Numbered from the stretch's first letter, positions 608 to 54,984 are shown. The stretch: 64,000 nt of DNA from an uncultured Bacilli bacterium (GCA_944358255.1 CALVQQ010000001.1:3295-67294); one strand, 5' to 3'. Numbers and translations: made by a program. Notes: generated from the letters alone by a model not told the origin.

Positions 608-626
608 TTTTCTTTCCCCTTCCTAA

Positions 627-1010
627 TTACATACGTCTTCTCTTAGGTGGTCTGCATCCATTATGTGGTATTGGTGTTACATCTGTAATCCCAGTTATCT
701 CAAGTCCTGCAGTTTGAAGTGATCTAATTGCAGTTTCTCTACCTGCACCAATTCCTTTTACAAAAACTTCTACCTTTTTCATTCCATTGTCTACTGCAAC
801 TCTACCTGCAGCTTCAGCGCTTTGTCCAGCAGCAAATGGTGTTTTCTTTTTGCTGCCTTTGTATCCAAGGTTTCCGGCAGATGACCAACTTACTACATTT
901 CCGTTTTCATCTGTTATTGTAACTATTGTGTTATTGAATGTTGCGTGTATGTGTGCTTGGCCAATTGTTACATCTTTCTTGACTTTTCTTTTTCTTCTAT
1001 TGTATGCCAT
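627..1010 (-). CDS. rpsK: 30S ribosomal protein S11
   Basis: 127 aa ORF ([34 protein letters not shown]...) with conserved order rpsM-rpsK-rpoA. Confidence 0.93.
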
Positions 1011-1023
1011 TATTTATTCCCTC

Positions 1024-1389
1024 CTATTTCTTCTTATTAGCTATTGTTTTAGGTTTACCTTTACGTGTTCTTGCATTTCTACTTGTTCTTTGTCCTCTAA
1101 CAGGTAATCCTTTTTTGTGTCTTGTACCTTGATATGAGTTGATTTCCATTTTTGTTTTAATGTTCATCTCAACTTCTCTTTTTAAGTCACCTGTTAATAC
1201 ATATTTGTCTGCTTCTGCTCTTAGTTTATTAACGTCTTCTACAGTAAGATCTTTTGCTCTTATGTCTTCGCTTATTCCTGCATCTTTACATATTTTCTTT
1301 GCACGGCTTGGACCTATACCATAAATATATGTAAGTGCTACAACGATTCTTTTGTCGTTTGGTAAATCTATATTTTTAATACGTGCCAT
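1024..1389 (-). CDS. rpsM: 30S ribosomal protein S13
   Basis: 121 aa [29 protein letters not shown]..., classic S13 N-terminus. Confidence 0.93.
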
Positions 1390-1397
1390 AAATCCTC

Positions 1398-1511
1398 CTA
1401 ACCTTGTCTTTGTTTGTGTTTTGGATTTTCACAAATAACCCTAACAACACCTTTTCTTTTAATTATTTTGCATTTGTCGCATATTTTTTTTACTGATGGT
1501 CTTACTTTCAT
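1398..1511 (-). CDS. rpmJ: 50S ribosomal protein L36
   Basis: Not in the ORF track (<60 aa). Manual minus-strand translation gives [37 protein letters not shown] (37 aa), located between infA and rpsM. Confidence 0.9.
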
Positions 1512-1523
1512 TTCTACCCTCCA

Positions 1524-1739
1524 TTATTTTCTATAAATTATTCGCCCACGTGTTAAATCACATGTTGGAATCTCGAGCAATACTGTATCGCCTGGAAAGA
1601 TACGGATAAGGTTTTGACGCATTTTTCCAGAAACGCGGGCTTCTACAATATGACCGTTCTCGAGTTTCACTTTGAAGTCTCCACCTGGGATAACTTCTAA
1701 TACTTTACCTTCAAGTTCAATATAACCTTCTTTTGCCAT
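1524..1739 (-). CDS. infA: translation initiation factor IF-1
   Basis: 71 aa [51 protein letters not shown]..., an S1-like IF-1. Confidence 0.92.
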
Positions 1740-1743
1740 TCTA

Positions 1744-2490
1744 TCACTCTCCTGTTAGTATTTTGTAACCTTCTTTGGTTACTGCTATGGTATGTTCAAA
1801 GTGTGCTGCTACACTTCCGTCTTGTGTAGTTATTGTCCATCCGTCTTCTAACATCCATATATATCTTTTCTTTAAACTAAACATTGGTTCAATGGCAAGT
1901 GTCATTCCTTCTTTTAATATTAACTCTGATTCGTCGTTATCATAATTAAATATGTATGGGTCTTCGTGTACTACTGTGCCAATTCCGTGTCCAGTTAATT
2001 CTCTTATGACTCCATATCCTTTTTCTTTTGCAACACTTTCTATTGCTTTGGATACTTCGTTTAATTTTATTCCCTCTTTAATTACACTTAATCCTTTATA
2101 AAGTGCTCTTTCTGTGTCTTCCACTAATGCCTTAATTTCATTAGTAGTTTTACCTACAATGTATGTTCTTGCAGAGTCAGCGTGATATCCTTTATAACAT
2201 GCTCCAACATCAACTTTTACTATATCCCCATTTTTAATCTTTCTTTTTCCTGGAATTCCGTGCACTACTTCATCGTTTATTGATATGCATACGCTTTTTG
2301 GATATCCATCATAGTTTAAAAATGACGGTGTGCATTTATTATCTCTTATGTATTTGTCAGCTATTTCATTTAGCTTTTCGGTTGTTATTCCAGGTTTTAT
2401 TGATGTTTTCATTAGTTCTAAAACGTTATATACTACTGTCCCTGCAATATTTATTTTTTCTATTTCTTCTTTTGTTTTTATACTAACCAT
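1744..2490 (-). CDS. map: methionine aminopeptidase type I
   Basis: 248 aa with pita-bread fold motifs and conserved adk-map-infA order. Confidence 0.88.
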
Positions 2491-3128
2491 TTTTCTATCT
2501 CTTTCATAGTAGAATCTGCATCTTGTGTTGAATCGATTTCAATTAAATTGTTTTTGCTTTTAAAGTATTCTATTATTGGTTTTGTTTCATTCATATATGT
2601 GTCATACCTGATGTTGTACGCTTCTTCGGTGTCATCAACTCTACTTTCTAGTTCTACTTTGCAATCGTCACAAATCCATTCAACTTTTGGCATATTGTAA
2701 CCTGTTAATTTGTTATATCCTTTTTTACACTTTGGACAAGTTAATCTTCCAAGCACTCTTTTTAAACCAGTTTCCTTATCTATTTTTAAATATATAACTT
2801 TGCCTATATTTAAACCTAGTTTTTCGAGAATCTCTTCGTAATCTTTTACTTGTTTAAGTGTTCTAGGATATCCATCCATTATAAATGGTGTATTTTTGCT
2901 AAGTGTTTTTAATTTGTTTAGTAACATTTTGTTGATTAATTCGTCGTTTACTAATTTGCCGCTTGACATTATTTCTGATAATTCTTTTCCAAGTTCAGAA
3001 CCACTTTTTACTTCTTCTCTTAATAAGTCTCCTGTGGATATGTGAACATACCCATATTTTTCTTTAATTAAATCTGAAAAAGTTCCTTTACCTGCTGCAG
3101 GTGGCGCTATAAATAATATATTATTCAT
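2478..3128 (-). CDS. adk: adenylate kinase (zinc-lid type)
   Basis: P-loop GKGT near the N-terminus and a CPKC...CDDC zinc lid. Sits downstream of secY. Confidence 0.9.
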   Translation of the reverse strand: MNNILFIAPPAAGKGTFSDLIKEKYGYVHISTGDLLREEVKSGSELGKELSEIMSSGKLVNDELINKMLLNKLKTLSKNTPFIMDGYPRTLKQVKDYEEILEKLGLNIGKVIYLKIDKETGLKRVLGRLTCPKCKKGYNKLTGYNMPKVEWICDDCKVELESRVDDTEEAYNIRYDTYMNETKPIIEYFKSKNNLIEIDSTQDADSTMKEIEKWLV

Positions 3129-3130
3129 TT

Positions 3131-4390
3131 TTACCTCCTATATGCTCGACTTGCAACTGAGCTTTCTATTTGTTTATATGTTTCTAATAATACTCCTACC
3201 ACGATTAAAATACTAGTTCCCCCAAGTGTTACTATGCTTGGCATATCTGATATCCAACTAAATATTATTGGTAATGCTGCAATTATTGCTAGGAATATTG
3301 CACCCATAAATGTGATTCTTGATAATACTTTACTTATATAATCACTTGTTTCTTTTCCTGGCCTTATTCCTGGAATGTATCCACCGTTTTTATTTAGGTT
3401 CTTTGATAAGTCCTCTGGGTTTACTGCAGCTAAGTATGTATAAAAGTATACAAATATAAATATTAGTATTATGTATATTATGAATCCAATCGGTGTAGTT
3501 GTTGTTAAATATTTTGTTACAAATAGTTGAAAGTTTTCACTTTTTATGAAATATGTTAGTGTTGTTGGTATTGCAAGTACTGCTGAAGCAAATATTACTG
3601 GTATTACTCCTGCTGAATTTAATCTTAATGGTAGATATGTTTGTCTTCCACCATATGCAGATACTGTTCTATTAGAATATTGTATAGGTACTCTTCTTTG
3701 AGCTTCTTGTACGTATATTACTCCTACTATTATCGCAATATATAGTATTATGTAAATTGCATAAGATAAAAGTCCTATATAAATGTTTGTGTTATTTCCA
3801 ATTAATGATCTATATGCTTCTATTAACATTGATGGTAGTGTTGTTACGATACCTGACATTATTATTAATGATATACCATTTCCTATTCCTTTGTTTGTTA
3901 TTTGGTCTCCTAACCATAATAGGAATGCTGTTCCTGCTGTTAATATAATGGCTATTTTAACATATTCTACTGGCTCTAGTCCTGCTGAACCCATAAACAT
4001 TGCTGTGTATATATAACTTTCTACAAAGGCAAATCCTATACCTATGTATCTAGTTATTTTGTTTATTTTTCTTCTTCCTTCTTCTCCCATTTCTCTAAGT
4101 TCTTTGAAGTATGGGATCCCCATTATATCCATTTGGAATAATTGAATTATGATTGATGCTGTGATATATGGTGTGATACCTAAAGCAAATATTGAAAATT
4201 GTTTTAGTCCTCCACCACTCATTGCATTTAATAGTTCTAGAAATCCTAAGTCTCCTGTAATTTCTTTCATTCCTGGTACAGTTATTGTGTTACCTAAACA
4301 AAATATTACTAAAGCACCTAATGTGTATAAGACTCTGTTTCTAAGATCTTTATTGGTTTTTTTAAATATTTGTCTAAATGTTTTAAACAC
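3131..4390 (-). CDS. secY: preprotein translocase subunit SecY
   Basis: 419 aa polytopic membrane protein between rplO and adk, with SecY-like TM pattern. Confidence 0.92.
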   Translation of the reverse strand: MFKTFRQIFKKTNKDLRNRVLYTLGALVIFCLGNTITVPGMKEITGDLGFLELLNAMSGGGLKQFSIFALGITPYITASIIIQLFQMDIMGIPYFKELREMGEEGRRKINKITRYIGIGFAFVESYIYTAMFMGSAGLEPVEYVKIAIILTAGTAFLLWLGDQITNKGIGNGISLIIMSGIVTTLPSMLIEAYRSLIGNNTNIYIGLLSYAIYIILYIAIIVGVIYVQEAQRRVPIQYSNRTVSAYGGRQTYLPLRLNSAGVIPVIFASAVLAIPTTLTYFIKSENFQLFVTKYLTTTTPIGFIIYIILIFIFVYFYTYLAAVNPEDLSKNLNKNGGYIPGIRPGKETSDYISKVLSRITFMGAIFLAIIAALPIIFSWISDMPSIVTLGGTSILIVVGVLLETYKQIESSVASRAYRR

Positions 4391-4834
4391 TTAGATCACC
4401 TCAGCTTTCCCACCTAACTCTTCTATTTTATTTATTGCTGTATTTGTAAATACGTTTGCTTTTACTGTTAATTTTTTAGTTAGTTCTCCGCTTCCTAATA
4501 TTTTTAAACCTTTTAATTCTTTTCCAATTAATCCGCTTTCTTTTAGTAATTCTTTTGTAACTACTGTTCCGTCTTCAAATCTATTTAAGTTTCCAACGTT
4601 AACAATGTTGTATCTAACTGTAAATCTTTTGTTATTAAATCCTCTTCTTGGTACCCTTTTGTATAGTGGATTTTGTCCACCTTCAAAATATACTGGAATG
4701 CTTGCACCAGAACGTGCTTTTTGTCCTTTTTCTCCACGCGTTGAAGTTTTTCCCATTCCGCTTCCTGGACCTCTTCCAACTATTTTTCTCTTATGAGTTG
4801 CTCCAACTTGTGTCTTTAGTTCATTTAACTTCAT
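4391..4834 (-). CDS. rplO: 50S ribosomal protein L15
   Basis: 147 aa MKLNELKTQVGATHKRKIVGRGPGSGMGKTSTRGEKGQKARSG... Confidence 0.92.
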   Translation of the reverse strand: MKLNELKTQVGATHKRKIVGRGPGSGMGKTSTRGEKGQKARSGASIPVYFEGGQNPLYKRVPRRGFNNKRFTVRYNIVNVGNLNRFEDGTVVTKELLKESGLIGKELKGLKILGSGELTKKLTVKANVFTNTAINKIEELGGKAEVI

Positions 4835-4836
4835 AA

Positions 4837-5373
4837 CTATATTTCCTCCACTTTTTTACCACGAAGATTTGCAATGTGTGCTCTACTTTTTTGTTTTTTT
4901 AGTGCATCCATTGTTGCTCTTGCAGTGTTTATTTGTGTGTTGCTTCCAAGGGATTTTGAAACTATGTCTTTTACTCCAGCTAGTTCTAGCACGTTACGTA
5001 CTGGTCCTCCAGCAACTATTCCACGTCCTTCTCTTGCTGGACGAATTAGTACTTTTGCAGCTCCACATACACCTGTTACTTCGTGTGAAAGTGTACGGTT
5101 ATCTACTAAGTCAACTTTAATTACATTTTTTTCTGCTGATTTTATTGCTTTGCTTATTGCTGCTTGTACTTCGTTTGCTTTCCCTGTTCCAAGTCCAACT
5201 CTTCCTTTTCTGTCTCCAACTGCAACTGTTGCTGAAAATCTCATTGAACGTCCGCCTTTTGTTGTTTTTGATACACGGCTTATTGAGATTACTTTTTCTT
5301 CGTATGGACTTTTCTTTTCATAATTTTTGTTGAATTCTTTTCTTGGTTTTCTTTCTTTATCGTTTTTTTCCAT
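4837..5373 (-). CDS. rpsE: 30S ribosomal protein S5 (with basic N-terminal extension)
   Basis: S5 dsRBD and C-terminal domains present. Directly abuts rplO, so no rpmD (L30) gene lies between them. Confidence 0.9.
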   Translation of the reverse strand: MEKNDKERKPRKEFNKNYEKKSPYEEKVISISRVSKTTKGGRSMRFSATVAVGDRKGRVGLGTGKANEVQAAISKAIKSAEKNVIKVDLVDNRTLSHEVTGVCGAAKVLIRPAREGRGIVAGGPVRNVLELAGVKDIVSKSLGSNTQINTARATMDALKKQKSRAHIANLRGKKVEEI

Positions 5374-5384
5374 GCTTACCTCCC

Positions 5385-5738
5385 TTAGAATTTTAATCCT
5401 GCTTCTCTAGCAGATTCTGCTAGGGCTTTTATACGTCCATGATATAAGTATCCACTTCTATCAAAAACTACTTCAGTTATTTTTGCATCTTTTGCTTTTT
5501 TTGCTATGCTTTCTCCAACTTTTTTAGCAGTTTCAATATTGTTTTTGTCTAACTTTAATTCTAGTGAAGAAGTGCTTACTAAAGTTTTACCTGTTTCATC
5601 ATCTATTATTTGCGCATACATGTTTGTATTGCTTCTAAATACATTTAGTCTTGGTAATTCTTTAGTACCGCTCAAGTTTTTTCTAATACGATTATGCCTT
5701 TTTATACGCATACTGTTTCTTGATTCTTTTTTTATCAT
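5385..5738 (-). CDS. rplR: 50S ribosomal protein L18
   Basis: 117 aa, [14 protein letters not shown]... with conserved position. Confidence 0.92.
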
Positions 5739-11455: not shown

Positions 11456-12078
11456 TATTTAAGCACCTCCTCTATTTTTTTAACGCTATCAACATCTATA
11501 ACTAGGCTATTTGCATTAACTACGGCTAGTACGTTTATATTTGCCGGATTAATTGTTAATACATTTTCTAGATTTCTTGTTGCTAATAGTAATTTGTCGT
11601 CTTCTATATTAGTTACTATTAATGTTTTAGCATCTGCTTTTAATGTTTTTAAGCATCCTAATATTTCTTTTGTCTTGTTGCTTTCTATTTTTAAATTGTC
11701 AACTACAATTAATTCTTTGTTTTGGAATTTGTCTGAAAGAGCTGATTTTATTGCAATCTCTCTTTCTTTTTTGTTCATTTTTTTGTCATAACTTCTAGGT
11801 GTTGGCCCAAATACTGTTCCTCCACCTACCCATTGTGGACTTCTAATTGATCCTTGACGAGCACGGCCAGTTCCTTTTTGTCTCCAAGGTTTTCTTCCGC
11901 CACCGCTGACTTCGCTTCTGCCTTTTGTTTTAGCAGTTCCTTGTCTTAGTGATGATAATTGATTTTTTAATGCTGTTGATAATACTATTTCGTTTACTTC
12001 TGTATTCCATATAGTATCATTTAGTGTTAAATCACTTACTTTTTCACCTTTTAGATTTAATACGTCTATTTTTGCCAT
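11455..12078 (-). CDS. rplD: 50S ribosomal protein L4
   Basis: 207 aa, conserved position. Confidence 0.92.
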
Positions 12079-12080
12079 TA

Positions 12081-12860
12081 TTATTCACCGTCCTTTTGTG
12101 TAGTTTCTTCTTCGTTGTTCTCACTTGTCTCGGCTACTGGTTCATCGATTACTTCTTCAGTAACTACTTCTTCTTTAACTTCGTTTTCAGTAACTTCTTC
12201 TATTACATATGTAACTAGTTCTTTTGCTTCGTTTTTTCCGCCTTTGATTGCACTTCTAATTAATACATATCCTTTTTTAGGTCCTGGAACGTTACCTTGT
12301 ACTAGAATGCAATTATTTTCTAAATCAACACTTATTACTTCTAGATTTTGAATAGTAACTTGTTCATTTCCCATATGTCCTGGTAATTTTTTACCTTTAA
12401 GTACTCTCATTGGTCTCATAGGTCCTCTTGAACCTACAGCTCTATGATAATGTGAACCATGTGACATTGGTCCTCTTGAGAAATTATGTCTTTTTATTGT
12501 TCCTTGGAAACCTTTACCTTTGCTTGTTCCAGTTACATCTACTAATTCTCCTGCTTCAAAAATATCTCCTGCGATTACTTGCCCTACTTCATAGTTAGAA
12601 ACATCTATTCCTTTTATTTCTTTTAAGAAGCGCTTAGGCATTGTATTTGCTTTTTTTGCATGTCCAATTTCAGGTTTATTTGATACTTTTTCTTTTTTGT
12701 CAAATGTACCTAATTGGATACTGTTATACCCGTCTTTTTCAACTGTTTTAATTTGTGTTATTACGTTTTTTTCAACTTCAATTACAGTTACAGGTATTAA
12801 TTTTCCGTCAGTTGTGAATACTTGCGTCATTCCAACTTTACGTCCTAAGATTCCTTTCAT
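12081..12860 (-). CDS. rplC: 50S ribosomal protein L3 with a roughly 50 aa acidic C-terminal extension
   Basis: N-terminal 200 aa is canonical L3 ([16 protein letters not shown]...). The C-terminus [39 protein letters not shown] is low-complexity and acidic. Confidence 0.9.
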
Positions 12861-23267: not shown

Positions 23268-24416
23268 CTACCACCTACTTGGGAAATATAAGTAATTTCT
23301 AGGATTTTGTGGTTGTATGTTAGTCCATCCTGTGTTAATTTCAAAGTGTAGGTGTGCCCCTGTTGTACATGCGTCATATCCGCCTTGTCTTTTGCCGGTC
23401 CATCCTCCACCACTATATCCAATTATTGTGTTTATTGTTACTGTGTCCCCTGTTGAAACTTCTATTGATGATAAGTGTAAGTATCTAGTTGTGTATTCTT
23501 TTCCATCTATTAGGTGTTTAACATATACTATATTTCCACCACAACTTGCTTTTCTAACTATTGTTCCTACTGTTCCAGATGCAGCGGCATATACTGGGTT
23601 CCAGTCTGCTAATGCTATATCTATTCCTTTATGGTATACATACCCTGCTCCTGTTAATGGGTCTACTCTATAACCGAATTCGCTTGTTACGATACCTGTT
23701 TTTACTGGAAGATAAAACCCTGAAGCATATGGTACGCCTAAACATACAGTTATGTCTTCATCCATGTCACAACCAGCATTTCTAAGATATTCTATTTCTT
23801 CTTCTAGTCCTTTTACTTGTGCTTCTTTATCTGTATACATGTCTGATAAATCTTCTATTTCCACATTTATTTGCGCAAGTAATTTGTTTTGTTCAGCTAT
23901 TGCTTTTTCTTCGTTTTTTGTCTCTATTTCTAGTTGTTTTTGTTCTTCTTCTAGTTTGACAATTAATTCGTTCATTTCTACTATTAATTCGTCGTTATGG
24001 TTACTTAGTTGCTCCACTATTGCTGTTCTAAATATGAAATCTGTGAAGTCTGTCGCACCAAATACGTATTCTAAATATACGTTTTCTCCATTTGTAATTT
24101 GCAAAAATGACAATAGTTCTTTTATTTCTTGTTCTTTTTCTTCTATTGTTTTTTGTGTTTCTTCAATTTCTTTTTTTGCTTCTTGTATTCTTAAACTGTA
24201 TTTTTCTATATTAGCATATTTTTCTGCTATTTCTTGTTCTTTTTCTTTTGCTCTTGCTTGTGCTTCTGCTCTTTCTTCATCGTAGTTTTCTAGTTCTTTT
24301 ATCATGTCTTCTACTTCTGTTATGTAATCTCTTAGTGTTTTTGCTTTAACATTTACTGTTGGAATTAGTAAGGTGAGTATTACGGTAATTATAACGAAAC
24401 TTATTTTTTTTCTCAT
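23268..24416 (-). CDS. M23 (LytM) peptidase with N-terminal signal anchor and long coiled-coil, EnvC/FtsX-partner-like
   Basis: Coiled-coil-rich N-terminal two thirds. C-terminal M23 motifs HKGIDIA… and …GAHLHFEI. Located immediately downstream of ftsE-ftsX. Confidence 0.75.
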   Translation of the reverse strand: MRKKISFVIITVILTLLIPTVNVKAKTLRDYITEVEDMIKELENYDEERAEAQARAKEKEQEIAEKYANIEKYSLRIQEAKKEIEETQKTIEEKEQEIKELLSFLQITNGENVYLEYVFGATDFTDFIFRTAIVEQLSNHNDELIVEMNELIVKLEEEQKQLEIETKNEEKAIAEQNKLLAQINVEIEDLSDMYTDKEAQVKGLEEEIEYLRNAGCDMDEDITVCLGVPYASGFYLPVKTGIVTSEFGYRVDPLTGAGYVYHKGIDIALADWNPVYAAASGTVGTIVRKASCGGNIVYVKHLIDGKEYTTRYLHLSSIEVSTGDTVTINTIIGYSGGGWTGKRQGGYDACTTGAHLHFEINTGWTNIQPQNPRNYLYFPSRW

Positions 24417-44249: not shown

Positions 44250-45326
44250 TTAAAATTTTTTTAATGCAAAATTTACTAAGTCTTTCACAGAATATCTATT
44301 TATGATTTTTGATTGATTTTTTGTCATTGTTTCTTGCATATTTTTATCTTTTAATAACTTCAATGTGTTTTTTACTACTTCTTCAACATCGTTTGATATT
44401 AAACTAAGTCCGTTTTTATAAAAAAACTCTGCATTATAACTTTCTACTCCAGGTATTGGCATTAGATGAATCATAGGTTTTCTTATCACTGCAACTTCAG
44501 TACTTGTGAGACCGCCAGGTTTGGTTAATACAATTTTGCTTGCTTGTATATATTCATTTATGTTGTTTACGTATCCTTTAACTATAAGGTTCGGATTGTT
44601 TATCCTTTTCAATATGGAATATAATTTATCATTATTTCCGCATATTGCTACTACGTAAGTTTCTGGAATATTTTTTAATATTGCTTCAACTATTTCTTTC
44701 ATTTTTCCAAATCCCATACTGCCTGATGTAATTAGAATAATGTATTTGTCTGTTGGTAAATTTATGCTGCTTTTTATTTCATGAAAAGAAGTTGAAACAG
44801 ATATGCCAAAATCTAACAGTACTTCTTCTTTAAAACCTTTTTTTATAAATTCTTCTTTTAATGTTTTATGTGGTATAACAAAATAGTCTGGATTTGTTTC
44901 TTCCCAAAATGGTATAGCACGGTAATCTGTCGCTACATTTATAAGTTTTATGTCTTTCCCTTCTTTTTTTAATGCGGTTATTGCCATTGAGGGAAATAAG
45001 TGTGGGCATATTACTATGTCATAGTCGTTGTCTTTTACATATTTATAAACTTTTCTTTTACCCAGTTTATTTAGGGTATATACTGGGCTAATTATTCCTG
45101 TTTTGCTATAGGTTTCTCCTAATTTATAAGCAATTTTAAATAAATCTCCATTTCCTTTCGTAGAATCTAAATATATTTTTTCTACTCTTTTTTTTGCTTT
45201 TGGACCTATAATATCAAAGTAGTCCGCAAATTTAATTTCTACATTGTTTTTTTAAATTCTCTTTCTATATAGTGTCCACAAGCATTGTGTCCGCCACCAG
45301 TACTGCAAGATAATATTAATATTTTC
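44250..45326 (-). CDS. UgtP/MGDG-synthase-like (GT28) glycosyltransferase, interrupted by a frameshift in an A7 homopolymer
   Basis: N-terminus from ATG 45324-45326 reads MKILILSCSTGGGHNACGHYIEREFKK then TM*. The run ttttttt at 45247-45253 (minus-strand A7) breaks the frame. With one extra A the frame continues NVEIKFADYFDIIGPKAKKRVEKIYLDSTKGNGDLFKIAYKLGETYSK… into the track ORF 44250..44987, which holds the GT28 C-terminal domain. Confidence 0.6.
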
Positions 45327-45681
45327 ATGGTTTCACTTCCCATTATTAAATATTTCTTATACTTAAAGTAATAACTAATATTAAAAATCTAGTTAAGTAA
45401 ATTTATTAATTTTTAATCTTTCTTTCAATTTATAAATATTATGCTTTTATTTATAGTAATAATACTAAGAATACTAAAATAAAAATACTGAAAAAATAAA
45501 CAACTTTATATATTAAAATAGTTAATCTATATAAATGATAAAGTTGTTCTATCATTTTGTAATATTTTTTTGATATTTGTATTATATTACAAATTTATGA
45601 ATTCTAAATGAACTTTGTTAACATAATCATATTTAGCTTAACTCTTATGAACATCTCTGCTTTATTTAAAAGATTTTTTAT

Positions 45682-46335
45682 TTATCTAATTGTAGGTTTA
45701 ACTATTTCAAACGTTCCAAAATGTTCATACCGGTCTTCTAGAATTTTAGAAAATACAGTGATTTGCGGCTTTATATAATAACCATTTTTATGAGACCAAG
45801 TTCCATCACTATTTTGACGTATAAAATGGAAGTCTTGAATTACTCCATTCGTAAGTGAAAGATAAACAGCAATTTTATATCCACCATGCGTATTCGCACT
45901 TTGTTCATCTGTCTCATAAGTTTGAATATTTAATGCTTGTATATCTTTTAAAAAACAATTTAAAAAAGCATTTTTGTCTTTTACAATAGTATAATAAGAA
46001 ATAGAATTAATAAAGCCAACGTTAAAAGGGAAAACATCTGTAATTTCTAATGCGCAATATTTTTTGATTAAATAATCTAAACTTGGTAAGCCTAATGCGT
46101 AGGTATAGCAATTTCCTAAAAAATATTTTGTTAAATCATCTTGAAAGTTCATATCATTACGACTTAATTTCACTAATTCTTTTAATGCTTGTAAATATAT
46201 TATTTCTATTTCAGCACTGCTTTTACATAAACTCGCTTTTTTATATAATTGAATTAGCCTAGCTTTCGCCGCAGCTTCCTTAAATAAATCTATATTAATT
46301 TTTATTTCCCCTTTCGATAAAAAATAATATAACAA
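45682..46335 (-). CDS. hypothetical protein, possible papain-fold (NlpC/P60-superfamily-like) Cys/His hydrolase
   Basis: 217 aa with …GNCYTYALGL… (Cys), roughly 50 aa later …HGGYKIAVY… (His), then a further His (…WSHKNGYY…). Spacing resembles Cys-His-His/polar triads. No detectable signal peptide. Isolated in an AT-rich gene-poor tract. Confidence 0.3.
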   Translation of the reverse strand: MLYYFLSKGEIKINIDLFKEAAAKARLIQLYKKASLCKSSAEIEIIYLQALKELVKLSRNDMNFQDDLTKYFLGNCYTYALGLPSLDYLIKKYCALEITDVFPFNVGFINSISYYTIVKDKNAFLNCFLKDIQALNIQTYETDEQSANTHGGYKIAVYLSLTNGVIQDFHFIRQNSDGTWSHKNGYYIKPQITVFSKILEDRYEHFGTFEIVKPTIR

Positions 46336-47386
46336 AACAAAAATTTAAAGTCAAGAAATATGTTTTAAATATCATTTAATACTTATTATGAAAACTGTAT
46401 ATAACCATAATTCTAAAAAAATAAAAATGTATACAGTCAAATATAACGCTTTTATATATGTTAAATAACTAATTGTTCAGTTGTGTATATAAATATTCTT
46501 GTATATATCATCAATGACTTTTAACAAGTTTTTAAAATTAAAGAATTTTCTTTTGGGGTTTAATGTATTGCCGCATGAGTTAATAAAATATATTTTATAT
46601 TTTTAATATTCTTATTTTATTAAATGATTAATTTGCTATTTTTAAATTTTGAAGTTTGTTAACGCTTTTAATTCTTTTTATACCTCTATTTTATTGCATA
46701 AGTTTATTATAAATTACAAGTTTTTTTAAAATTATTAAAATTCAGTTGTTCTACACTTTTTTGCAAAAATATTTGGAATATATAAGTTTTAATTTATAGT
46801 TTCTAATTTCGTACAATTTTGATGACAATATTTTATTCTTTTTTATAAAATCAAGTAATTTTTTAGTAATTCGATATTGTCTTCTATTTTTTTCTTTTGT
46901 TGATTACAATTGATTTCCATTTTCATCAGTAATTTGAAAACTATGAACTATTTTATTTCTAAATATTAACTAGTTCATTAAATATAATAGATATTTTATC
47001 ATTTTGTGTAACACTTGTGATTATTTCATCTATCACCGAAAGTAAATTCTTAAAAGTTTTATTAATTAAGTCTAGTTTATTATAATTTTTACTATCTATT
47101 TTCAAAATATTTTCAATAATAAATAAGTTGCTACTATTAAGCGTACACAAAGCAATTCCAAATAATTCTCTATATTTTTTACTAGGTAATGCTTGTTTGC
47201 TATATTCTTCATATATAATTAAAATTTTTCTTCCCTTTAATATTTAAATTATTGACTAAATATAAAACACATTACATAAAAAGGATGTCAACATTATAAA
47301 TATTTTTAACATCCTTTATTCATTGCATATTTTAAATTTCACTCGAACAAGTTATAATGGTTTTATATTTGTCATTATTAATTTTT

Positions 47387-47440
47387 CCTTATTTTATGCT
47401 ACTTTCCGCAGCAATTCTTGTATTTTTTCCCCGAACCACA
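47387..47440. repeat. imperfect direct repeat copy of the secA 3' terminus (attachment-site remnant)
   Basis: ccttattttatgctactttccgcagcaattcttgtattttttccccgaaccaca aligns at about 80% identity with 52478-52533. Reverse translation gives CGSGKKYKNCCGK* , the SecA C-terminal zinc-finger end. Confidence 0.7.
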
Positions 47441-47710
47441 TGAAAATCCCAAGACAGTATTTTCAGTATTATAAGTATTATCATAATTACCATTATTTCC
47501 TTATTTTACGGACATCGAGGGACTAGTACTATCAGTATTATTAGTACTATAATCAACATATATTATTCAATAAATGTGGTCAAAATGTGGTCAAATCTAT
47601 CAAACGATCTATTTAAACTATCTTGCTCACATCATAATTATACTACAATTAACTTATTTAGTAAATCAGTTGAATATAATAAAAACTCTATGTTTCAAAC
47701 ACAGAGTTTA

Positions 47711-48963
47711 TTAAGTATTAAATTTAATAGTTTCACTAATTGTATCAGATGATACCAATCTATTCATCTTATCAATAGCTTGTCTAATTTCTTCGTTTAA
47801 AGCGCTTACATAGCTTCTTTCCGTAACTTTAGTACTAGCATGACCTAATATAGCAGCAATATCCTTTAGAACCACGCCATCATGCGCTGTACGAGTGGCG
47901 AAGGTTCCTCGTAAATCATAAAAACGACAATTAGTATTTAATAGTTCCTTAATAATACTATTTGGGTCTTTAATCATATCAGTACCAGAATACGTTCCAT
48001 CTTTTCTCGTAAATACTATTTTTACTCTATTATGTTTAGAAGTATTTTCTACAACCTTATATTCTATTAACTTACCATACTTATTTCTTACTTCTTCTAA
48101 TACATATTGTTTATACTTCTTTCCATACTCTTTTTTGTACTTATTTTGTAATTTTTTATAATTACACAGTACTAAATACAGAGTGTCACAAATATAAACT
48201 TCTCTACAACTTCCAACTGTTTTAGTTGTACCTAAATACCATCTACCTTTTTTCTCGTTATCTTTGGCATATACAGTTTTATTTATTTTTATAATTCTAT
48301 TCTCTAAATCAATATCATCCCAGGTTAACGCAAATACCTCTCCTGTTCTCATTCCTGTATAACAAGCAGTAAGAAATGCACATATAAACACTTTATTATC
48401 TTTAAATCTATTCAAGATAATTTTTATTTCTTCATTAGTATAAATGTGACCTATATCATTTTTTTTAATTCAAATGATAATACTCTAGGTATTTGTAAGT
48501 CACCCGCTGGATTATTTTTAATAAATCCAAAATAATAAGTTGCATCTCTTAAAGAACTTTTAATTACTTTTTGATAATTTCTTAATGCCTCTTTCTTATT
48601 GGATGTTTGATACAATTTTAATAATGCTTGATTAAGAATATATAATGTTAATTTTGATAATTTATAATTACCTAATTCTTTTTTAATATTACTAAAAGAT
48701 TCTCTATACCTTTTTGCTGTAGAATATTTATAATTTACTTCAAAATATTCTTTCATCCAATAATCTAAATATTCAGAATATAACATTTCATATTCATTTA
48801 CTTTTTCTCCATTTATAAATTCATCATAGGCTTTTTGTCCTGCTAAATATGCTTCGTTTTTAGTTTTAAAACCTGATTTAGTAATTTGTTTTCTTTTTCC
48901 ATTTACTTTTCCTGCTTCAAAACAATACTGATATACATTTCCTCTTTTCCTAATATTGATCAT
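47711..48963 (-). pseudogene. int: phage-type tyrosine integrase, split by a frameshift at an A8 homopolymer
   Basis: N-terminal part (48451..48963) MINIRKRGNVYQYCFEAGKVNGKRKQITKSGFKTKNEAYLAG… is an arm-binding/SAM-like domain. C-terminal part (47711..48415) carries catalytic R…HxxR…Y (…LGHASTKVTERSYV…). The frames overlap at tttttttt 48459-48466; one extra A gives continuous …LKKNDIGHIYTNEEIKIILNRFKDNKVF…. Confidence 0.8.
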
Positions 48964-49004
48964 CTTATCATCTTCCTTTCTCTTTGATCATTATTATTTT
49001 ATAC

Positions 49005-49040
49005 GAAAAAACAGTAGCACCTTAAATCTACTGTTTTAAC
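49005..49040. terminator. bidirectional rho-independent terminator
   Basis: AACAGTAG / CTACTGTT stem flanked by an A-run and a T-run, between the integrase and ORF 49042..49263. Confidence 0.5.
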
Positions 49041-49041
49041 C

Positions 49042-49263
49042 TTATATTAATTTTGATAATATTTCATTTTTTTCTAATACATCTTTTGGTACTAAGTTCC
49101 CATTTTCTATTTTTATAAATTCCATTATCTGTACATTTTGTTCAACATATTTTCCTACAAATATGTATGCTAAACTACATTTTGAGATACTATTTTCTTT
49201 TAAAAACAAATTATAACTATCATCAACAGATGAGAAGTATAAATTCTTTTCCACAGGATTCAT
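49042..49263 (-). CDS. hypothetical protein (73 aa)
   Basis: ORF only; no recognisable motif. Confidence 0.25.
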   Translation of the reverse strand: MNPVEKNLYFSSVDDSYNLFLKENSISKCSLAYIFVGKYVEQNVQIMEFIKIENGNLVPKDVLEKNEILSKLI

Positions 49264-49517
49264 CTTTTTTATTCATTATTTAAAATTTTACCGGAACTTA
49301 AACGTAAATGAGCTTTTTAATAATTTTTAATTTACTATTGATAATTAAATATTTGCACTTAAAATACCAATTAAATTTAATATCTATACTAGTATAAAAC
49401 AAAATTCAACATCTTAAAAATAAAGCTATATTTACAACTTTTCAATATTCTATATTTTTAACTTAGTATTTTATGCATGAATATTTATATTTGGTGTATA
49501 ATATTTTTGAAAGGAAA

Positions 49518-50822
49518 ATGAATATGAAAAGGTTTTTAAATTTATTTTTGGTATTATTTTTATTAAGTGGGTGTAATGAAAAAGAAGTAGTTAAAGATGT
49601 TCAAGAAGATACATTGAATTATGCTTTTGTTATTGGTAAAAATGATGAGTTTCTTTTAATTCAAGATAATAAAGGAATTATATATGAAAAAAATATATCT
49701 GGTTTAAATCCTGGTGATATGATAAAAACTTATGATGATATTAGTAATTTAAATGATTATGAAATTATTTCTGATGATGATTTTCCGTTAGCTTTTAATG
49801 ATAATGGGATTTTTAAAGATTATTATAATATTTCTTATCAAAAAGTAAAAAATATGAGTTTGGATGAGAAAATTGGACAAATTTTACTTGTTAGATATCC
49901 ATCCGAAAATCAGACCGATGTTTTAGAAAAATATCAATTTGGTGGTTATGTGTTTTATGCGAAAGATTTTAATGATAAAACTAAAGATGAAGTTATTAAA
50001 ATGATTAATGATAATCAAAATGTGGCTAAAACGCCTATTTTAACTGCAGTAGATGAAGAAGGTGGTAAGGTTAATAGAATTAGTACTAATTCTAACTTAG
50101 CTAATGAACCTTTTAAATCCCCTAGGGAACTTTATTTATCTGGTGGTTTTGATTTAATCAAGGAAGATACTATTAAAAAAAGTAAATTACTTTATGAACT
50201 TGGTATTAATTTGAATTTAGCGCCTGTTGCTGATGTATCTACTAACCCTAATGACTATATGTATTCAAGAACACTTGGTGAAAACACTGATAAGACTAGC
50301 GAATATGTTAAAACGGTTATTAAATCTAGTAATGGTTTGGGTGTTACTTATACTTTGAAACATTTTCCTGGTTATGGTAATAATACTGATACTCACCAAG
50401 GAACTTCTTTGGATAATAGAAGTTATGATGATATTTTAAATAATGATTTACCTCCTTTTAAAGTTGGTATTGATGAAGGGGCTTTATCTATTTTAGTTAG
50501 TCATAATATAGTGAGTAGTATAGATTCTGATTTACCTTCTTCTTTATCTTATAAGGTTCATAATTTGCTTAGGGATAATCTTAATTTTACGGGCATAGTT
50601 ATAACTGATGATTTAGATATGGGGGCAATCGGTGATGTTAAATCATCTACTGTTAAAGCTGTTTTAAGCGGGAATGATTTAATTATTACTACTGATTATG
50701 AAAGCAGTATAAATGCAATTAAAGAAGCTATTAATAATGGTGAAATTTCTGATAAATTAATTGATAAGACTGCTACTAGAGTAATCGCTTTTAAATATTA
50801 TAAAGGCATGATAAAAGGATAA
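49518..50822 (+). CDS. glycoside hydrolase family 3 N-terminal-domain lipoprotein (NagZ/YbbD-like beta-N-acetylhexosaminidase)
   Basis: Signal peptide with lipobox LLSGC. GH3 motifs …GQILLVRYP…, …KTPILTAVDEEGGKVNRI…, …KHFPGYGNNTDTHQG…. SD AAAGGAAAA. Confidence 0.7.
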   Translation: MNMKRFLNLFLVLFLLSGCNEKEVVKDVQEDTLNYAFVIGKNDEFLLIQDNKGIIYEKNISGLNPGDMIKTYDDISNLNDYEIISDDDFPLAFNDNGIFKDYYNISYQKVKNMSLDEKIGQILLVRYPSENQTDVLEKYQFGGYVFYAKDFNDKTKDEVIKMINDNQNVAKTPILTAVDEEGGKVNRISTNSNLANEPFKSPRELYLSGGFDLIKEDTIKKSKLLYELGINLNLAPVADVSTNPNDYMYSRTLGENTDKTSEYVKTVIKSSNGLGVTYTLKHFPGYGNNTDTHQGTSLDNRSYDDILNNDLPPFKVGIDEGALSILVSHNIVSSIDSDLPSSLSYKVHNLLRDNLNFTGIVITDDLDMGAIGDVKSSTVKAVLSGNDLIITTDYESSINAIKEAINNGEISDKLIDKTATRVIAFKYYKGMIKG

Positions 50823-50838
50823 TTTTTGAGTTATCCTT

Positions 50839-51225
50839 TTAAATTTCACCAATATATTCTAATAATTTTAAGAACATTCTGATAAATTTCTTATCTAAAC
50901 CTAACTTGCCTAATTTTCTTATAGCAATTCTTTTTTTCTTAATTGGTTCTTCTCCAAATAATATTTCGTCTATTTTTTCTTTCATCTTTAATTCATTACT
51001 ACCTGTAGCAATATTATATAATTCATCTATTCTCGTAATAAGATGATTAATTAAAATCATTACTATGATAAGGATAACCATATAATAAAAGCTAAACATA
51101 AAACTACCAAATACTGCAAAATGTACAACTAATAGAAGGATTTCTGGTAATAATAAAAATCCTATAACAAACATTATTAATAATTCTTTTTCATTTAATT
51201 TTTTCTTAATTATCATAAATATCAA
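50839..51225 (-). CDS. hypothetical membrane protein
   Basis: 128 aa with 2 predicted TM helices. Separated from the next ORF only by an in-frame TGA. Confidence 0.35.
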   Translation of the reverse strand: MIFMIIKKKLNEKELLIMFVIGFLLLPEILLLVVHFAVFGSFMFSFYYMVILIIVMILINHLITRIDELYNIATGSNELKMKEKIDEILFGEEPIKKKRIAIRKLGKLGLDKKFIRMFLKLLEYIGEI

Positions 51226-51459
51226 TCAAAAAATAAGCATTATAATCATTACATTATATACATCGGTAATTAAATATATAATCATATTCACATTAAATAT
51301 TGTTACTCCAGATAAATATATAATACTTTGAGTAATTAATAATACAAATATAAATAGAGAAAACATTAATATAAATATCCTTAACACCTTTAATAGATTA
51401 GATATTTTATGATATGTTTGCATTCTTTTATTATTTCCTTCATCTTTCCAGTACTCCAT
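51226..51459 (-). CDS. hypothetical membrane protein
   Basis: About 77 aa from MEYWKDEGNNKRMQ… with 2 TM helices. The upstream part of the track ORF overlaps the istB remnant on the other strand, so the internal Met was chosen. Confidence 0.3.
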   Translation of the reverse strand: MEYWKDEGNNKRMQTYHKISNLLKVLRIFILMFSLFIFVLLITQSIIYLSGVTIFNVNMIIYLITDVYNVMIIMLIF

Positions 51460-51485
51460 AGCACTACTATCATATAAGTCTTTAT

Positions 51486-51940
51486 ATAACTGCTGGAGTT
51501 GGTAAAACACATTTAGCAGTTTCTTTAGGGATAGAAGCAGCTAAACATAGAAAAAGTGTTTACTTTATTACTTGTCATAATCTTATGACAAAATTAAATA
51601 AAGCACAAAAAGAAAATAGATTAGATAAGCAATTGCAACATTTAGCACAGTATAAATTGTTAATAATAGATGAAATTGGTTATTTACCTGTAGACCATCA
51701 AGGATCTAATTTATTATTTCAATTAATTGCTAAAAGATATATGACTAAATCTACAATTGTAACAACAAATATGCCGTTTTCAAGATGGGGGGGGAAGTAT
51801 TTAGTGATAATACTTTAGCAAGTGCAGTATTAGATAGGTTACTTCATTATTCACATATTATAAGAATTACAGGTAATTTTTATAGAATTAAAGATAAAAT
51901 TGTAGAATCTGACTCAAGAACAAATAAATATAATGAATAA
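51486..51940 (+). pseudogene. istB: IS21-family IstB (ATP-binding helper) remnant, 5'-truncated and frameshifted at a G8 run
   Basis: Begins at Walker A ITAGVGKTHLAVSLGIEAAKHRKSVYF…IIDEIGYLPVDHQGSNLLFQLIAKRY…NMPFSRWGG. Frame breaks at gggggggg 51787-51794, then continues EVFSDNTLASAVLDRLLHYSHIIRITGNFYRIK… No IstB N-terminus or istA is present. Confidence 0.7.
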
Positions 51941-52148
51941 AATTCTTTGTTTCTTTCTTATAAGAAAGAAAGCCTATCGGCGAGATAGACTTATAACACT
52001 GCTGGTTTCTTGTTTTACTTCTTTTTCATAAAAGAAGTAAAGCCACCGGCAGGTAGAAATATAATTTTCCTTAAATATTGAGAATGTGCTAGTAATAAAA
52101 ATTATAAGTTTTTAACTTTGACATATTTTTAAGTTTTGATGTTGACAT

Positions 52149-52259
52149 TTACATTTTAAATCCAGATTTACTTTTGAATTTTCTTTTCCCACCTTGGGGA
52201 GCAATTTCAAACTTATACTGAAATACCTTTCCTCTTTTTACTACATTTACTTTTCTCAT
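52149..52259 (-). pseudogene. second tyrosine-integrase N-terminal stub (36 aa), paralogous to the integrase at 48963
   Basis: MRKVNVVKRGKVFQYKFEIAPQGGKRKFKSKSGFKM* parallels MINIRKRGNVYQYCFEAGKVNGKRKQITKSGFKTK… and terminates prematurely. Lies about 230 nt downstream of the secA stop. Confidence 0.55.
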
Positions 52260-52477
52260 TACACAATTCCTTACTTTATGTAAACGGAGTTATCTTTAAC
52301 AAAAAAGTTAGCAAATGAATGCTAACTTTTTTGTTTCCAAAATTGTTTCCAAAAATTTTTCCCTTATTTTATAAGGCTTTTCAGAGGTTTTGGTAACATC
52401 TTTTTTAATTTTGGAAACAAAATGGAAACAAATCGACTATTTTTTATGATTTTTTGATTTTTAAAACCTTCGCAAAC

Positions 52478-52533
52478 CCTTATTTTATAAGCTATTTACC
52501 ACAGCAATTCTTATACTTTTTCCCTGAGCCACA
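52478..52533. repeat. secA 3' terminus copy (att site at the intact gene)
   Basis: Partner of 47387-47440; spans the secA stop codon at 52492-52494. Confidence 0.7.
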
Positions 52534-54984
52534 AGGACATGGTTCATTTCTGCCAATTTTTTTTGATACTCTTTTAGGAGCTTTTTTTGTTTCTTCTTTT
52601 GTATCATTGGTTTTTATATTTTTGTTTTCATGTCTCTCTAGGTTTTGACGTACTTCAGCTTTTAATAAAAAGGTAGTAATTTCTCTATTAATTTGAGCTA
52701 ACATGTTATCAAATAATTCAAATCCTTCTAAAGCATATGCTTGTAATGGATTAGTTTGAGCATAACCTCTTAATCCAATTCCCTCTTTTAAATGTTCCAT
52801 TGCGTCTAATTGATCCATCCAGTTTTTATCGAGTATTCTTAAAGTTATTGCTTTTTCAAAATCATTTTGTATTTCTACTGGAATATCTTTTAATTTTTCT
52901 TCATAATCTTTAACTACTATTTTGTATATATAGTCAATTATTTCATCAACTGTCTTACTTTCTAATTCCTTTTTATTTAATTTTTTGCTCTTTAATAAAT
53001 TAGCATTAAATCTCTCGATTATATTATCAATATCATTTATTGTTAATTTGTCCTCTGGCGGTATGTGACTCTTTACTTCTTGAGAAACGTACTCTTTAAA
53101 TGTTTCTAATATTCTGTCTCGTATGCTTTCTTGATCAAGAATCTCATTTCTTCTTTCATAAATTATTTCTCTTTGTCTACTTATAACATTGTCATAATCC
53201 AATAGGGCTTTTCTTCTATCATAATTGAATCCTTCAACTCTTTTCTGCGCACTTTCTATATTTTTGGATAACATTTTATGAGTAATTGGTTGGTCTTCTT
53301 TTATTCCAAATGTTGTCATTATTGCCTTCATTCTATCTGACCCAAACCTTGCCATTAAATCATCTTCCATTGATATATAAAATCTTGTTATACCAGGGTC
53401 TCCTTGTCTGCCACTTCTTCCTCTTAATTGGTTATCAATTCTTCTTGAATCATGTCTTTCAGAACCAAGTACCATTAAACCGCCTAATTCTTTTACACCT
53501 TCTCCAAGTTTTATGTCTGTTCCACGACCGGCCATATTAGTTGCAATCGTAACAGCTCCTTTTTGCCCAGCGTTTTTAATGATTTCTGCTTCTCTTTCAT
53601 GATTTTTAGCATTTAATAATTCGTGCTTTATTCCTCTCTTTTTTAATAGTGAACTTAATAATTCTGAACTTTCAATTGAAGCTGTACCCACCAAAATTGG
53701 TTGGCCTGTTTTATGCACGGTTTCAATAGTATTTGCTAATGCATTGTATTTACCTTTTATATTTATATATACTAAATCGTTCATGTCTTCTCTGATAACA
53801 GGCTTGTTTGTTGGAATTTCAATTACGTACATATTATATATATTTCTAAACTCTTCTTCTTCAGTCTTGGCTGTTCCTGTCATACCAGATAGTTTATTGT
53901 ACATTCTAAATAAATTTTGGAAAGTTATTGTTGCCAGTGTTTTTGTTTCACTATTTATTGTTACTCCCTCTTTTGCTTCTAAAGCTTGATGCAATCCATC
54001 TGAATATTGTCTTCCATGCATTAATCTGCCTGTAAATGCGTCTACTATTATAATTTTATCGTTGTCTACAACATAGTCGACATCTTTTTTAAATGCATAA
54101 TTTGCTGTTAATGCTTTATCTAAATTGTGTACTAACATTGCATTATTAATATCATATAGATTATCTACTTTTAAAAGTTTTTCTGATTTTTTAACTCCTT
54201 CTTCAGTTAATGTTACTTTCTTTGTCTTCTCATCTATTACATAATCATCTAATGTAAGACTTTTTGCAGCTTTATCTGCTAATATATATAAGTCCGCACT
54301 TTTACTTACGCCACCTGAGATGATTAGTGGAGTTCTCGCTTCGTCTATTAATATTGAATCGACCTCGTCAATAATTGCAAAATTCAAGCCCCTTTGGACT
54401 CTATTCTCACTTCTTACAACCATATTATCTCTAAGATAGTCAAATCCAAGTTCATTATTCGTAGTATATGTAATATCTTGATCATATGCTTGTTTCTTTT
54501 CTTGCGGCGTTAGTTCTTTTTTATTTATTCCTACGGTCACACCTAATAATTCATAAATTTTTCCCATCCACTCAGCATCACGGCAAGTTAAATATTCATT
54601 TACCGTAATAATGTGGACGCCTTTACCTTCTAGTGCGTTTAAATAAGCCGGCATTGTAGATGTTAATGTTTTTCCTTCACCAGTTTTCATTTCGGCTATA
54701 TTGCCAAAATGTATTGCTAGTCCTCCGATTATTTGAACTTTAAATGGCTTTTCTTTTAATACCCTCCATGATGCTTCTCTAACTAGTGCAAATGCTTCAA
54801 CTATTAAGTCATCTAAAGTTTCCCCATTAGATAGTCTCTTTTTAAATTCTTCTGTCTTTTCTCTAAAATCTGTGTCTTTTAATTTAGACATTTCTTCTTC
54901 TTTTTCTATTATTTCATCTGCTAATTTTTCAAATTTTTTTAGTTCTCTATTTTCATGATTAAATATGTTACTTAAAAATCCCAT
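52492..54984 (-). CDS. secA: preprotein translocase ATPase SecA
   Basis: 830 aa with DEAD-like motor domains and C-terminal zinc finger CPCGSGKKYKNCCGK. Confidence 0.93.
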   Translation of the reverse strand: MGFLSNIFNHENRELKKFEKLADEIIEKEEEMSKLKDTDFREKTEEFKKRLSNGETLDDLIVEAFALVREASWRVLKEKPFKVQIIGGLAIHFGNIAEMKTGEGKTLTSTMPAYLNALEGKGVHIITVNEYLTCRDAEWMGKIYELLGVTVGINKKELTPQEKKQAYDQDITYTTNNELGFDYLRDNMVVRSENRVQRGLNFAIIDEVDSILIDEARTPLIISGGVSKSADLYILADKAAKSLTLDDYVIDEKTKKVTLTEEGVKKSEKLLKVDNLYDINNAMLVHNLDKALTANYAFKKDVDYVVDNDKIIIVDAFTGRLMHGRQYSDGLHQALEAKEGVTINSETKTLATITFQNLFRMYNKLSGMTGTAKTEEEEFRNIYNMYVIEIPTNKPVIREDMNDLVYINIKGKYNALANTIETVHKTGQPILVGTASIESSELLSSLLKKRGIKHELLNAKNHEREAEIIKNAGQKGAVTIATNMAGRGTDIKLGEGVKELGGLMVLGSERHDSRRIDNQLRGRSGRQGDPGITRFYISMEDDLMARFGSDRMKAIMTTFGIKEDQPITHKMLSKNIESAQKRVEGFNYDRRKALLDYDNVISRQREIIYERRNEILDQESIRDRILETFKEYVSQEVKSHIPPEDKLTINDIDNIIERFNANLLKSKKLNKKELESKTVDEIIDYIYKIVVKDYEEKLKDIPVEIQNDFEKAITLRILDKNWMDQLDAMEHLKEGIGLRGYAQTNPLQAYALEGFELFDNMLAQINREITTFLLKAEVRQNLERHENKNIKTNDTKEETKKAPKRVSKKIGRNEPCPCGSGKKYKNCCGK

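Follow-up and report, generated by a model that had tools for sequence, protein, structure and literature searches.

Three genes in a 64,000-nucleotide stretch of an uncultured Bacilli bacterium genome (GCA_944358255.1, CALVQQ010000001.1:3295-67294; the whole stretch is referred to below as the window) are interrupted inside homopolymer runs, and these interruptions are most probably plain decay, that is, three unrelated cases of replication slippage in the homopolymers of a 28% G+C genome, each in non-essential DNA. The genes are a UgtP-like glycosyltransferase (GT), the tyrosine integrase of a small island that occupies the 3' end of secA, and an IS21 istB remnant carried by that island. The window has a G+C content of 28.1% and most of its genes are on the - strand. 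On the + strand the tracts are T7 at 45247-45253, T8 at 48459-48466, and G8 at 51787-51794. An initial annotation of the DNA had reported these tracts and the frame breaks within them, and both its coordinates and its breaks were exact at all three sites by sequence and by translation. Adding one base restored a long open reading frame (ORF) at each of the three tracts, as did removing two. The three lesions are real features of the DNA with known ancestral states, and the broken genes have presumably lost their functions.

We scanned the window by inserting or deleting one or two bases in every run and scoring the ORF fusions that resulted. The other fusions flagged by the scan were plain junctions of adjacent genes rather than frameshifts, as in the whiA/M23-peptidase overlap at 23268-23422, which Pfam resolved as two separate genes. 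Runs of at least 7 bases make up 1.5% of the window, and under uniform indel placement the probability that all three breaks would fall inside them is ~3e-6. The concentration of breaks in long runs is thus far beyond chance, yet taken alone it does not discriminate between sequencing chemistry and biology.

The initial annotation favored homopolymer under-calling because all three genes seemed to change in the same direction, each being restored by one extra base. As arithmetic the repair works at all three sites. As history it fails for istB, where G8 is two bases longer than the in-frame G6: the GT and integrase lesions are 1-base losses, whereas the istB lesion is a +2 expansion. The shared direction is coincidental, arithmetic rather than biological.

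Tract lengths across independent assemblies and within the window

The same tract lengths recurred in contigs assembled independently of the window. Nine contigs from Logan and ENA (L001-L009), found through a neighboring 356-aa protein, shared 99.6-100% identity with the window, and T7 was present in each contig that extends to the GT tract. A further set (L021-L025) was found through a variant of the GT fragment, and the GT tract was 7 bases long in 10/10 sequences (the window, L001-L004, and L021-L025). Among these, the 35 kb SPAdes contig L021 was assembled from another sample and has 40 mismatches to the window over 10.8 kb (99.6% identical), which makes it a different strain of the same species, and it had the same T7, T8, and G8. 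The integrase tract was T8 in 15 of 16 sequences (the window, L001, L010-L019, L021, and two additional metagenome contigs, L117 and L118), the exception being L020, which contained A9. The C-terminal integrase fragment left by the break was recorded in 125 blocks of the sequence collection by exact-protein look-up. Assemblies sharing the tract lengths included SPAdes contigs (NODE_), MEGAHIT contigs (k119_), SPIRE-style scaffolds, Logan contigs, and an NCBI metagenome-assembled genome (MAG). SPIRE comprises Illumina data only, assembled with MEGAHIT (PMC10767986).

The window also supplied an internal control. The initial annotation had suggested counting the other long homopolymers that interrupt conserved genes, and within the window that count went against under-calling: the uninterrupted long ORFs, including dnaB and secA, hold 70 seven-base runs and ~22 eight-base runs, and these ~92 runs leave their genes intact. 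The breaks fell exclusively among 11 of the 131 runs of at least 7 bases, all within a 6.8 kb accessory segment at 45.2-52 kb (hypergeometric P = 4.5e-4). A chemistry error is blind to gene dispensability, and breaks confined to accessory DNA therefore led us to reject under-calling.

Were the chemistry at fault, the true lengths would be A8 for GT, A9 for the integrase, and G9 for istB. Such an error would place all breaks in runs of 7-8 bases and make all of them mendable by one base, as observed, and the L020 contig does carry the integrase A9. We nevertheless regard it as hardly credible. Besides the intact runs and the confinement of breaks to accessory DNA, the lengths matched in many independent assemblies, samples, and assemblers, a distinct strain among them, and the contigs examined bear short-read-type names. 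The in-frame length of the istB tract is G6, so that G8 would have to be an over-call, and a sister lineage has a T7-to-T8 insertion in its GT. The assembly can thus be trusted at long homopolymers, and GT and this copy of the integrase are pseudogenes that should not be "repaired". To the question of whether the two genes should be treated as functional, which the initial annotation left undecided, the answer for these copies is that they are to be treated as non-functional at the DNA level. The same three comparisons (the tract across independent assemblies, long runs in intact core genes, and ancestral length from homologues) offer a recipe for separating chemistry from biology that does not need reads.

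Probable decay of the glycosyltransferase, integrase, and istB remnant

GT begins with an ATG at 45328, ends with a stop at 44250, and reads MKIL...EFKKTM* up to its break at T7. The restored protein contained both the MGDG_synth and the GT28 C-terminal domains but scored 163 bits against the NCBIfam model for diglucosyl diacylglycerol synthase (NF010135), for which the cut-off is 500; it is UgtP-like and not a confirmed equivalog of UgtP/YpfP. Fifty homologues (64-81% identity) carry EFKENNV, EFRENNV, or EFKANNV across the position of the break, which gives AAA GAA AAT as the ancestral DNA. A G-to-A change (Glu to Lys) produced a run of eight A, and the loss of one A then left A7.

We found no intact version of this gene. 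Among 5.8e9 protein clusters there was no intact GT above 81% identity, the nearest intact relative being at 81%, and the exact restored 359-aa protein was absent from the collection while its 29-aa N-terminal stub was on 10 contigs. The gene is on record solely as frameshifted pieces of 245 aa and 29 aa. A scan of GTDB genomes with the restored GT returned only relatives at ≤78% identity in MAGs of uncultured Clostridia/Bacilli, and the window's species was not among them. Phase variation, one of the possibilities raised in the initial annotation, does not fit GT, given the same length in 10/10 sequences and no intact 359-aa allele on record.

Loci from a sister species with secA 91% identical to that of the window (L010, L013, and L016) contained only GT residues 127-359, the first 126 codons having been lost (11600-12300), and in L010 and L016 there was an additional T7-to-T8 insertion elsewhere in the gene (12095-12165). 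The decay in the sister species is independent of that in the window and includes a homopolymer change in the opposite direction. The restored window GT deviated from its homologues at 4 of 106 invariant columns (homologue median 0, maximum 5) and at 11 of 200 columns conserved at 90% (homologue median 3). Only 3 single-nucleotide polymorphisms (SNPs) separated the strains, too few for a between-strain ratio of nonsynonymous to synonymous rates (dN/dS). Together the GT sequences indicate a young but genuine pseudogene in every examined sequence of the species, within a clade that is losing the gene.

The integrase in the window is not a single polypeptide. Its Pfam domains (Arm-DNA-bind_4, Phage_int_SAM_3, and Phage_integrase) are split between two frames, and the N-terminal ORF ends ...SFELKKMI* at the break. 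Restored to A9 the protein is 417 aa, and an intact protein that is 100% identical to it (P0001) was found on one contig only, L020. Integrase relatives read ELKKN[DN]I at the site. The tract is an in-frame A9 in L020 as well as in sibling integrases (76-78% identical) from L032, L033, and L035, and the A8 of the window is consequently a 1-base loss. Exact look-ups of the predicted products placed the A8 allele on 117 contigs, compared with 4 for A7, 1 for A9, and 0 for each of A6, A10, A11, and A12. Other copies were broken elsewhere: L017 had a nonsense change (S30*), and P0268 and P0271 had frameshifts at two other A-rich sites. The pattern of alleles has the appearance of recurrent, contraction-biased decay in an enzyme that is not needed after integration.

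All close integrase relatives had a variant of the catalytic residues, YDLRG in place of HxLRH, and the linker that joins the core-binding domain to the catalytic one can be 5 aa shorter, as it is in P0002. We considered whether P0002 and P0009, which read ELKKRYTNEE, represent a compensatory deletion of the A8 allele. At the DNA level they have another in-frame linker (A7 followed by CGATAC) and are uninformative on this point.

The istB profile match starts at position 101, which makes the gene a truncated remnant regardless of how long its G tract is. Against NCBIfam IS21_help_AAA the remnant covered positions 99-231 of 232 with 187 bits (cut-off 200), and it was truncated in every island copy. 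It does not qualify as an IS21 element, as IstB is partial and lacks a neighboring istA ORF (no search for terminal repeats was made). The G tract was hypervariable, with G8 in the window and L021, G7 in L010, L015, and L016, G6 in L011-L014 and L017, GGGGGA in L018, and GGTGGG in L020. G6 is in frame in 5 loci, where it encodes FSRWGEVF, and relative to these copies the G8 of the window is an expansion by two bases. As part of a dead IS21 remnant in the island, the tract would be free to drift (G5A, G6, G7, G8).

Replication slippage in homopolymers would account for all three lesions, which lie within and beside the mobile island. Genuine decay, which the initial annotation had listed as an alternative, is supported for all three genes.

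The secA island, its neighbors, and the state of its integrase

The island is bounded by two copies of a direct repeat (D2) that are 79% identical and spaced 5093 nt apart. The L020 contig was 99.8% identical to the window up to 52521 and ~91% identical beyond it, placing a junction near 52521, and identity to other hosts also shifted at the left repeat. Together the flanking repeats and the drop in identity at 52521 mark the unit as a site-specific integrative island whose insertion site is the secA 3' end: the repeats duplicate the end of the target, the flanks are divergent, and the island occurs in five host groups. The 5.1 kb unit (~47392-52540) was 98.9-99.8% identical in L010-L021, while identity in the adjacent secA ranged from 99% (group A) through ~90-92% (groups B and C) down to 68-70% (groups D and E). 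The boundaries of the island and its near-identity across hosts are established, and the route of its spread is inferred. No carrier of the island was found among viral contigs, phage records, or plasmid records.

Sibling islands at the same secA site (loci L027-L036) contained intact integrases (P0002, P0005, and P0006) and a different cargo of Fic, protein kinase, and MqsR-/SocA-like genes. Further elements have accumulated beside the island. L012 contained, at 1-5606, between the position of secA (itself outside L012) and the island with its glycoside hydrolase family 3 (GH3) gene, two integrase genes, a Mob_Pre relaxase, and two DNA methylases. In L013 the interval between secA and the GH3 island (4008-5715) contained a DUF4238 protein with a SEC-C-like tail of its own and a SHOCT-domain protein. 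The elements in L012 and L013 are tandem accretion at one att site.

In the mechanism we propose, the in-frame A9 would be a mutational hot spot that is kept in active sibling islands, and contraction to A8 would uncouple the DNA-binding half of the integrase from the catalytic half. The contraction would lock the island in place, and the island would then come to resemble a decayed, possibly cis-mobilizable element.

Several observations weigh against plain decay. The island is near-identical in at least 5 host lineages and nearly all of its copies are A8; if A8 is ancestral, the island moved with a broken integrase and would have needed either some residual expression or a helper acting in trans or in cis. 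The integrase SNPs among A8 copies comprised equal numbers of nonsynonymous and synonymous changes (5 each), where neutrality predicts ~4:1 (binomial P ~0.03, n = 10), which is a weak hint of recent constraint on the integrase coding sequence. The A8 allele is also a perfect in-frame A_AAA_AAA heptamer of the -1 slippery type. Its 0-frame reads TT[A AAA AAA] ATG ATA TAG, with the catalytic domain encoded in the -1 frame, so that either a -1 shift or a transcript with one additional A would recreate the exact A9 protein. The extra divergence of GT is modest, and its inactivation is therefore recent. Sequencing platforms were taken from contig names and the SPIRE paper rather than run by run, and all evidence consists of assembled consensus, below which minority tract lengths are possible.

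These observations can be read as slipped-strand phase variation, with reversible tracts in which the integrase A8 is OFF and locked and A9 is ON and mobile, the ON state being rare and transient. In keeping with a switch, the integrase exists as A7, A8, and A9 alleles that do not differ otherwise, A8 and A9 copies occur within one host species (group B), the island is ~99% identical over hosts whose secA is 68-91% identical, and the SNP ratio hints at recent constraint. The allele counts, however, look like a one-way contraction ratchet (117:4:1 for A8, A7, and A9, with nothing beyond A9), other copies were killed by unrelated lesions, the lone A9 contig could be an assembly error, and GT had no length polymorphism at all (10/10). 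Runs of 8-9 A are also shorter than most characterized phase-variable tracts. The suggestion of phase variation in the initial annotation survives for the integrase only in a weak form, since the alleles exist yet in a ratio of 4:117:1 (A7:A8:A9), and we consider a reversible switch improbable. A second possibility is phenotypic rescue, in which the A8 integrase, and perhaps the A7 GT, yields a deliberately low dose of full-length protein, either because RNA polymerase slips backward and puts an extra A in the transcript or by -1 ribosomal frameshifting at A_AAA_AAA. The geometry of A8 with the catalytic domain in the -1 frame, the spread of this allele over hosts, and the weak purifying signal in the SNPs are all compatible with rescue, and at A/T runs the dominant transcription errors are single-base insertions, which become exponentially more frequent as the run lengthens (PMC5574713). 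Against it, the expected features of a programmed -1 frameshift were incomplete: the heptamer is present, but RNA folding downstream of both A tracts revealed no stimulatory structure above shuffled controls (z = -0.5 and +0.3), and homologues, including the sibling islands, hold the tract in frame with A9. Heptamers without stimulators raise frameshifting only ~2-10x over a background of ~0.05% in E. coli, to levels well under 1% (PMC4066793), and Traverse and Ochman did not detect transcriptional restoration of pseudogene frames in Buchnera (PMC5574713). The GT tract (T_AAA_AAA) is a non-canonical heptamer, the integrase is also broken by A7 alleles, nonsense, and other frameshifts, and the accessible portion of the Atkins 2016 recoding review contains neither "integrase" nor "recombinase". 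Rescue is accordingly unlikely.

Elements of both ideas meet in a reading in which A8 is the normal "parked" state of a traveling, secA-targeting island that obtains its integrase through rare slippage or reversion to A9. We hold this to be doubtful, though if true, the parked A8 would be a mobility switch of very low frequency and would explain island identity of ~99% across hosts with secA at 68-91%. Plain decay by slippage remains the preferred account of all three lesions.

The remaining features of the island and its surroundings are listed with the main ones in Table 1. The ~2 kb between GT and the island (45329-47391) is nearly free of ORFs, apart from that of 217 aa, and ends in the displaced secA terminus; it resembles what erosion would leave of earlier insertions at the secA site, and the 217-aa ORF may be left over from such an insertion. 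The 73-aa ORF upstream of the integrase could encode an excision or regulatory protein.

The GH3 cargo scored 135 bits against the NCBIfam beta-N-acetylhexosaminidase model, under the cut-off, and exact look-ups of the GH3 protein and of SecA returned no matches. The GH3 ORF was called at 449 aa in the window, L014, and L020 and at 432 aa in most other copies, and SNPs at 49493, 49494, and 49540 likely cause this difference in start and signal peptide between copies. The in-frame TGA of the membrane-protein ORF is private to the window, with GGA in 11/11 other copies including L021. This TGA, at 51226, is a substitution that lengthens an A run and not an indel. We rejected an alternative code with TGA as Trp, given that long table-11 ORFs dominate and that the 11 other copies contain GGA.

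The second integrase, of which the 36-aa stub remains beside the right repeat, appears to have been destroyed by the insertion of IS21, which was later partly deleted. Short repeats were present inside both ends of the island. At the right end (52330-52433) TTGTTTCCAAAA occurs twice together with inverted copies of TGGAAACAAAA, and L011 and L014 have lost one 11-nt copy; at the left end (47456-47553) there are three repeats of the AGTATTAT type. The repeats are candidate arm-binding sites for the integrase.

Table 1 Features of the broken genes, the secA island, and the adjacent DNA in the window.
Feature	Coordinates	Strand	Remarks
UgtP-like GT28 glycosyltransferase pseudogene	44250-45328	-	Pfam MGDG_synth, Glyco_tran_28_C, Glycos_transf_1; 359 aa with one A added
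A7 tract, site of the GT break	45247-45253	-	T7 on + strand; homologue comparison, 10 sequences
217-aa ORF	45682-46335	-	Conserved in same-species strains; no Pfam/NCBIfam match
Left att repeat, displaced original secA 3' end	47392-47447	.	Encodes ...CGSGKKYKNCCGK* on - strand; 56-nt direct repeat D2
Island tyrosine integrase, split	47711-48963	-	170-aa N-terminal ORF 48451-48963 and 234-aa C-terminal ORF 47711-48415; Pfam
A8 tract in core-binding/catalytic linker	48459-48466	-	T8 on + strand; 1 base short of in-frame A9
73-aa ORF upstream of integrase	49042-49263	-	In every island copy; no Pfam/NCBIfam match
GH3 beta-N-acetylhexosaminidase-like cargo, lipoprotein-type N-terminus	49473-50822	+	Pfam Glyco_hydro_3 1e-57
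Island membrane-protein ORF	50839-51510	-	In-frame TGA 51226-51228; 175-206 aa in other copies
5'-truncated IS21 istB remnant	51486-51940	+	Pfam IstB_IS21 101-235 of 238; first ~100 residues gone
Hypervariable G tract in istB remnant	51787-51794	+	G8 in window
36-aa ORF, N-terminal stub of second integrase, beside right att repeat	52149-52259	-	Repeat D4, 85% to 48916-48948; in all copies
Right att repeat, overlapping working secA 3' end (SEC-C zinc-finger codons)	52485-52540	.	Repeat D2
secA, host target	52492-54984	-	Intact 830 aa; T8 run 52557-52564 harmless to frame

Comparison with known systems

Programmed -1 frameshifting or transcriptional slippage is known from the transposases of IS1, IS3, and IS630 and from dnaX. 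The integrase resembles these in being a mobile-element gene with A_AAA_AAA in the 0-frame, the catalytic domain in the -1 frame, and a stop two codons on. It differs in having no stimulator, in a family default of in-frame A9, and in the unrelated inactivating lesions of its other copies.

The phase-variable glycosyltransferase and surface genes with which GT can be compared include Neisseria lgt, Haemophilus lic, and the poly-G/C genes of Campylobacter and Helicobacter. Like these, GT is interrupted in a homopolymer near its 5' end. Unlike these, its tract is only 7 A, has no length polymorphism in 10 sequences and no intact allele, and the orthologue is degraded by deletion. The poly(A) pseudogenes of Buchnera and Blochmannia share with the window A+T bias, long A/T runs, slippage, and frameshift (PMC5574713), and the GT tract was itself made by G-to-A substitution before the base was lost. 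The window differs from the Buchnera/Blochmannia case in coming from a MAG of free-living gut Clostridia, and in that accessory genes alone were hit while ~92 other long runs in core genes are intact.

For integrative elements, decay at a common att site, accretion in tandem, and cis-mobilization are well described (PMC5704250), and a review of these elements (PMC5704250) does not contain the term "secA". The window island shares with the family of cis-mobilizable elements (CIMEs) and ICESt1 (PMC5704250) a defective integrase and att repeats in which the 3' end of the target gene is duplicated. The 36-aa integrase stub, the extra SEC-C remnant, the islands in L012 and L013, and the relaxase element abutting in L012 recall the tandem remnants of CIMEs. 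In contrast to CIMEs, which by definition are without integration genes, the island has an integrase that is complete except for a 1-base loss and for which an intact allele exists; it has no transfer genes. Homopolymer pseudogenization and decaying integrative islands are both of known kinds, and the window island belongs to a compact family that attaches at the 3' end of secA, where the zinc finger is encoded, carries cargo as varied as a GH3 hexosaminidase in the window and Fic, kinase, or toxin-like genes in siblings, and has had its integrases repeatedly knocked out at A-rich hot spots. The region provides a small natural example of the fixation of a mobile island in A+T-rich gut Clostridia.

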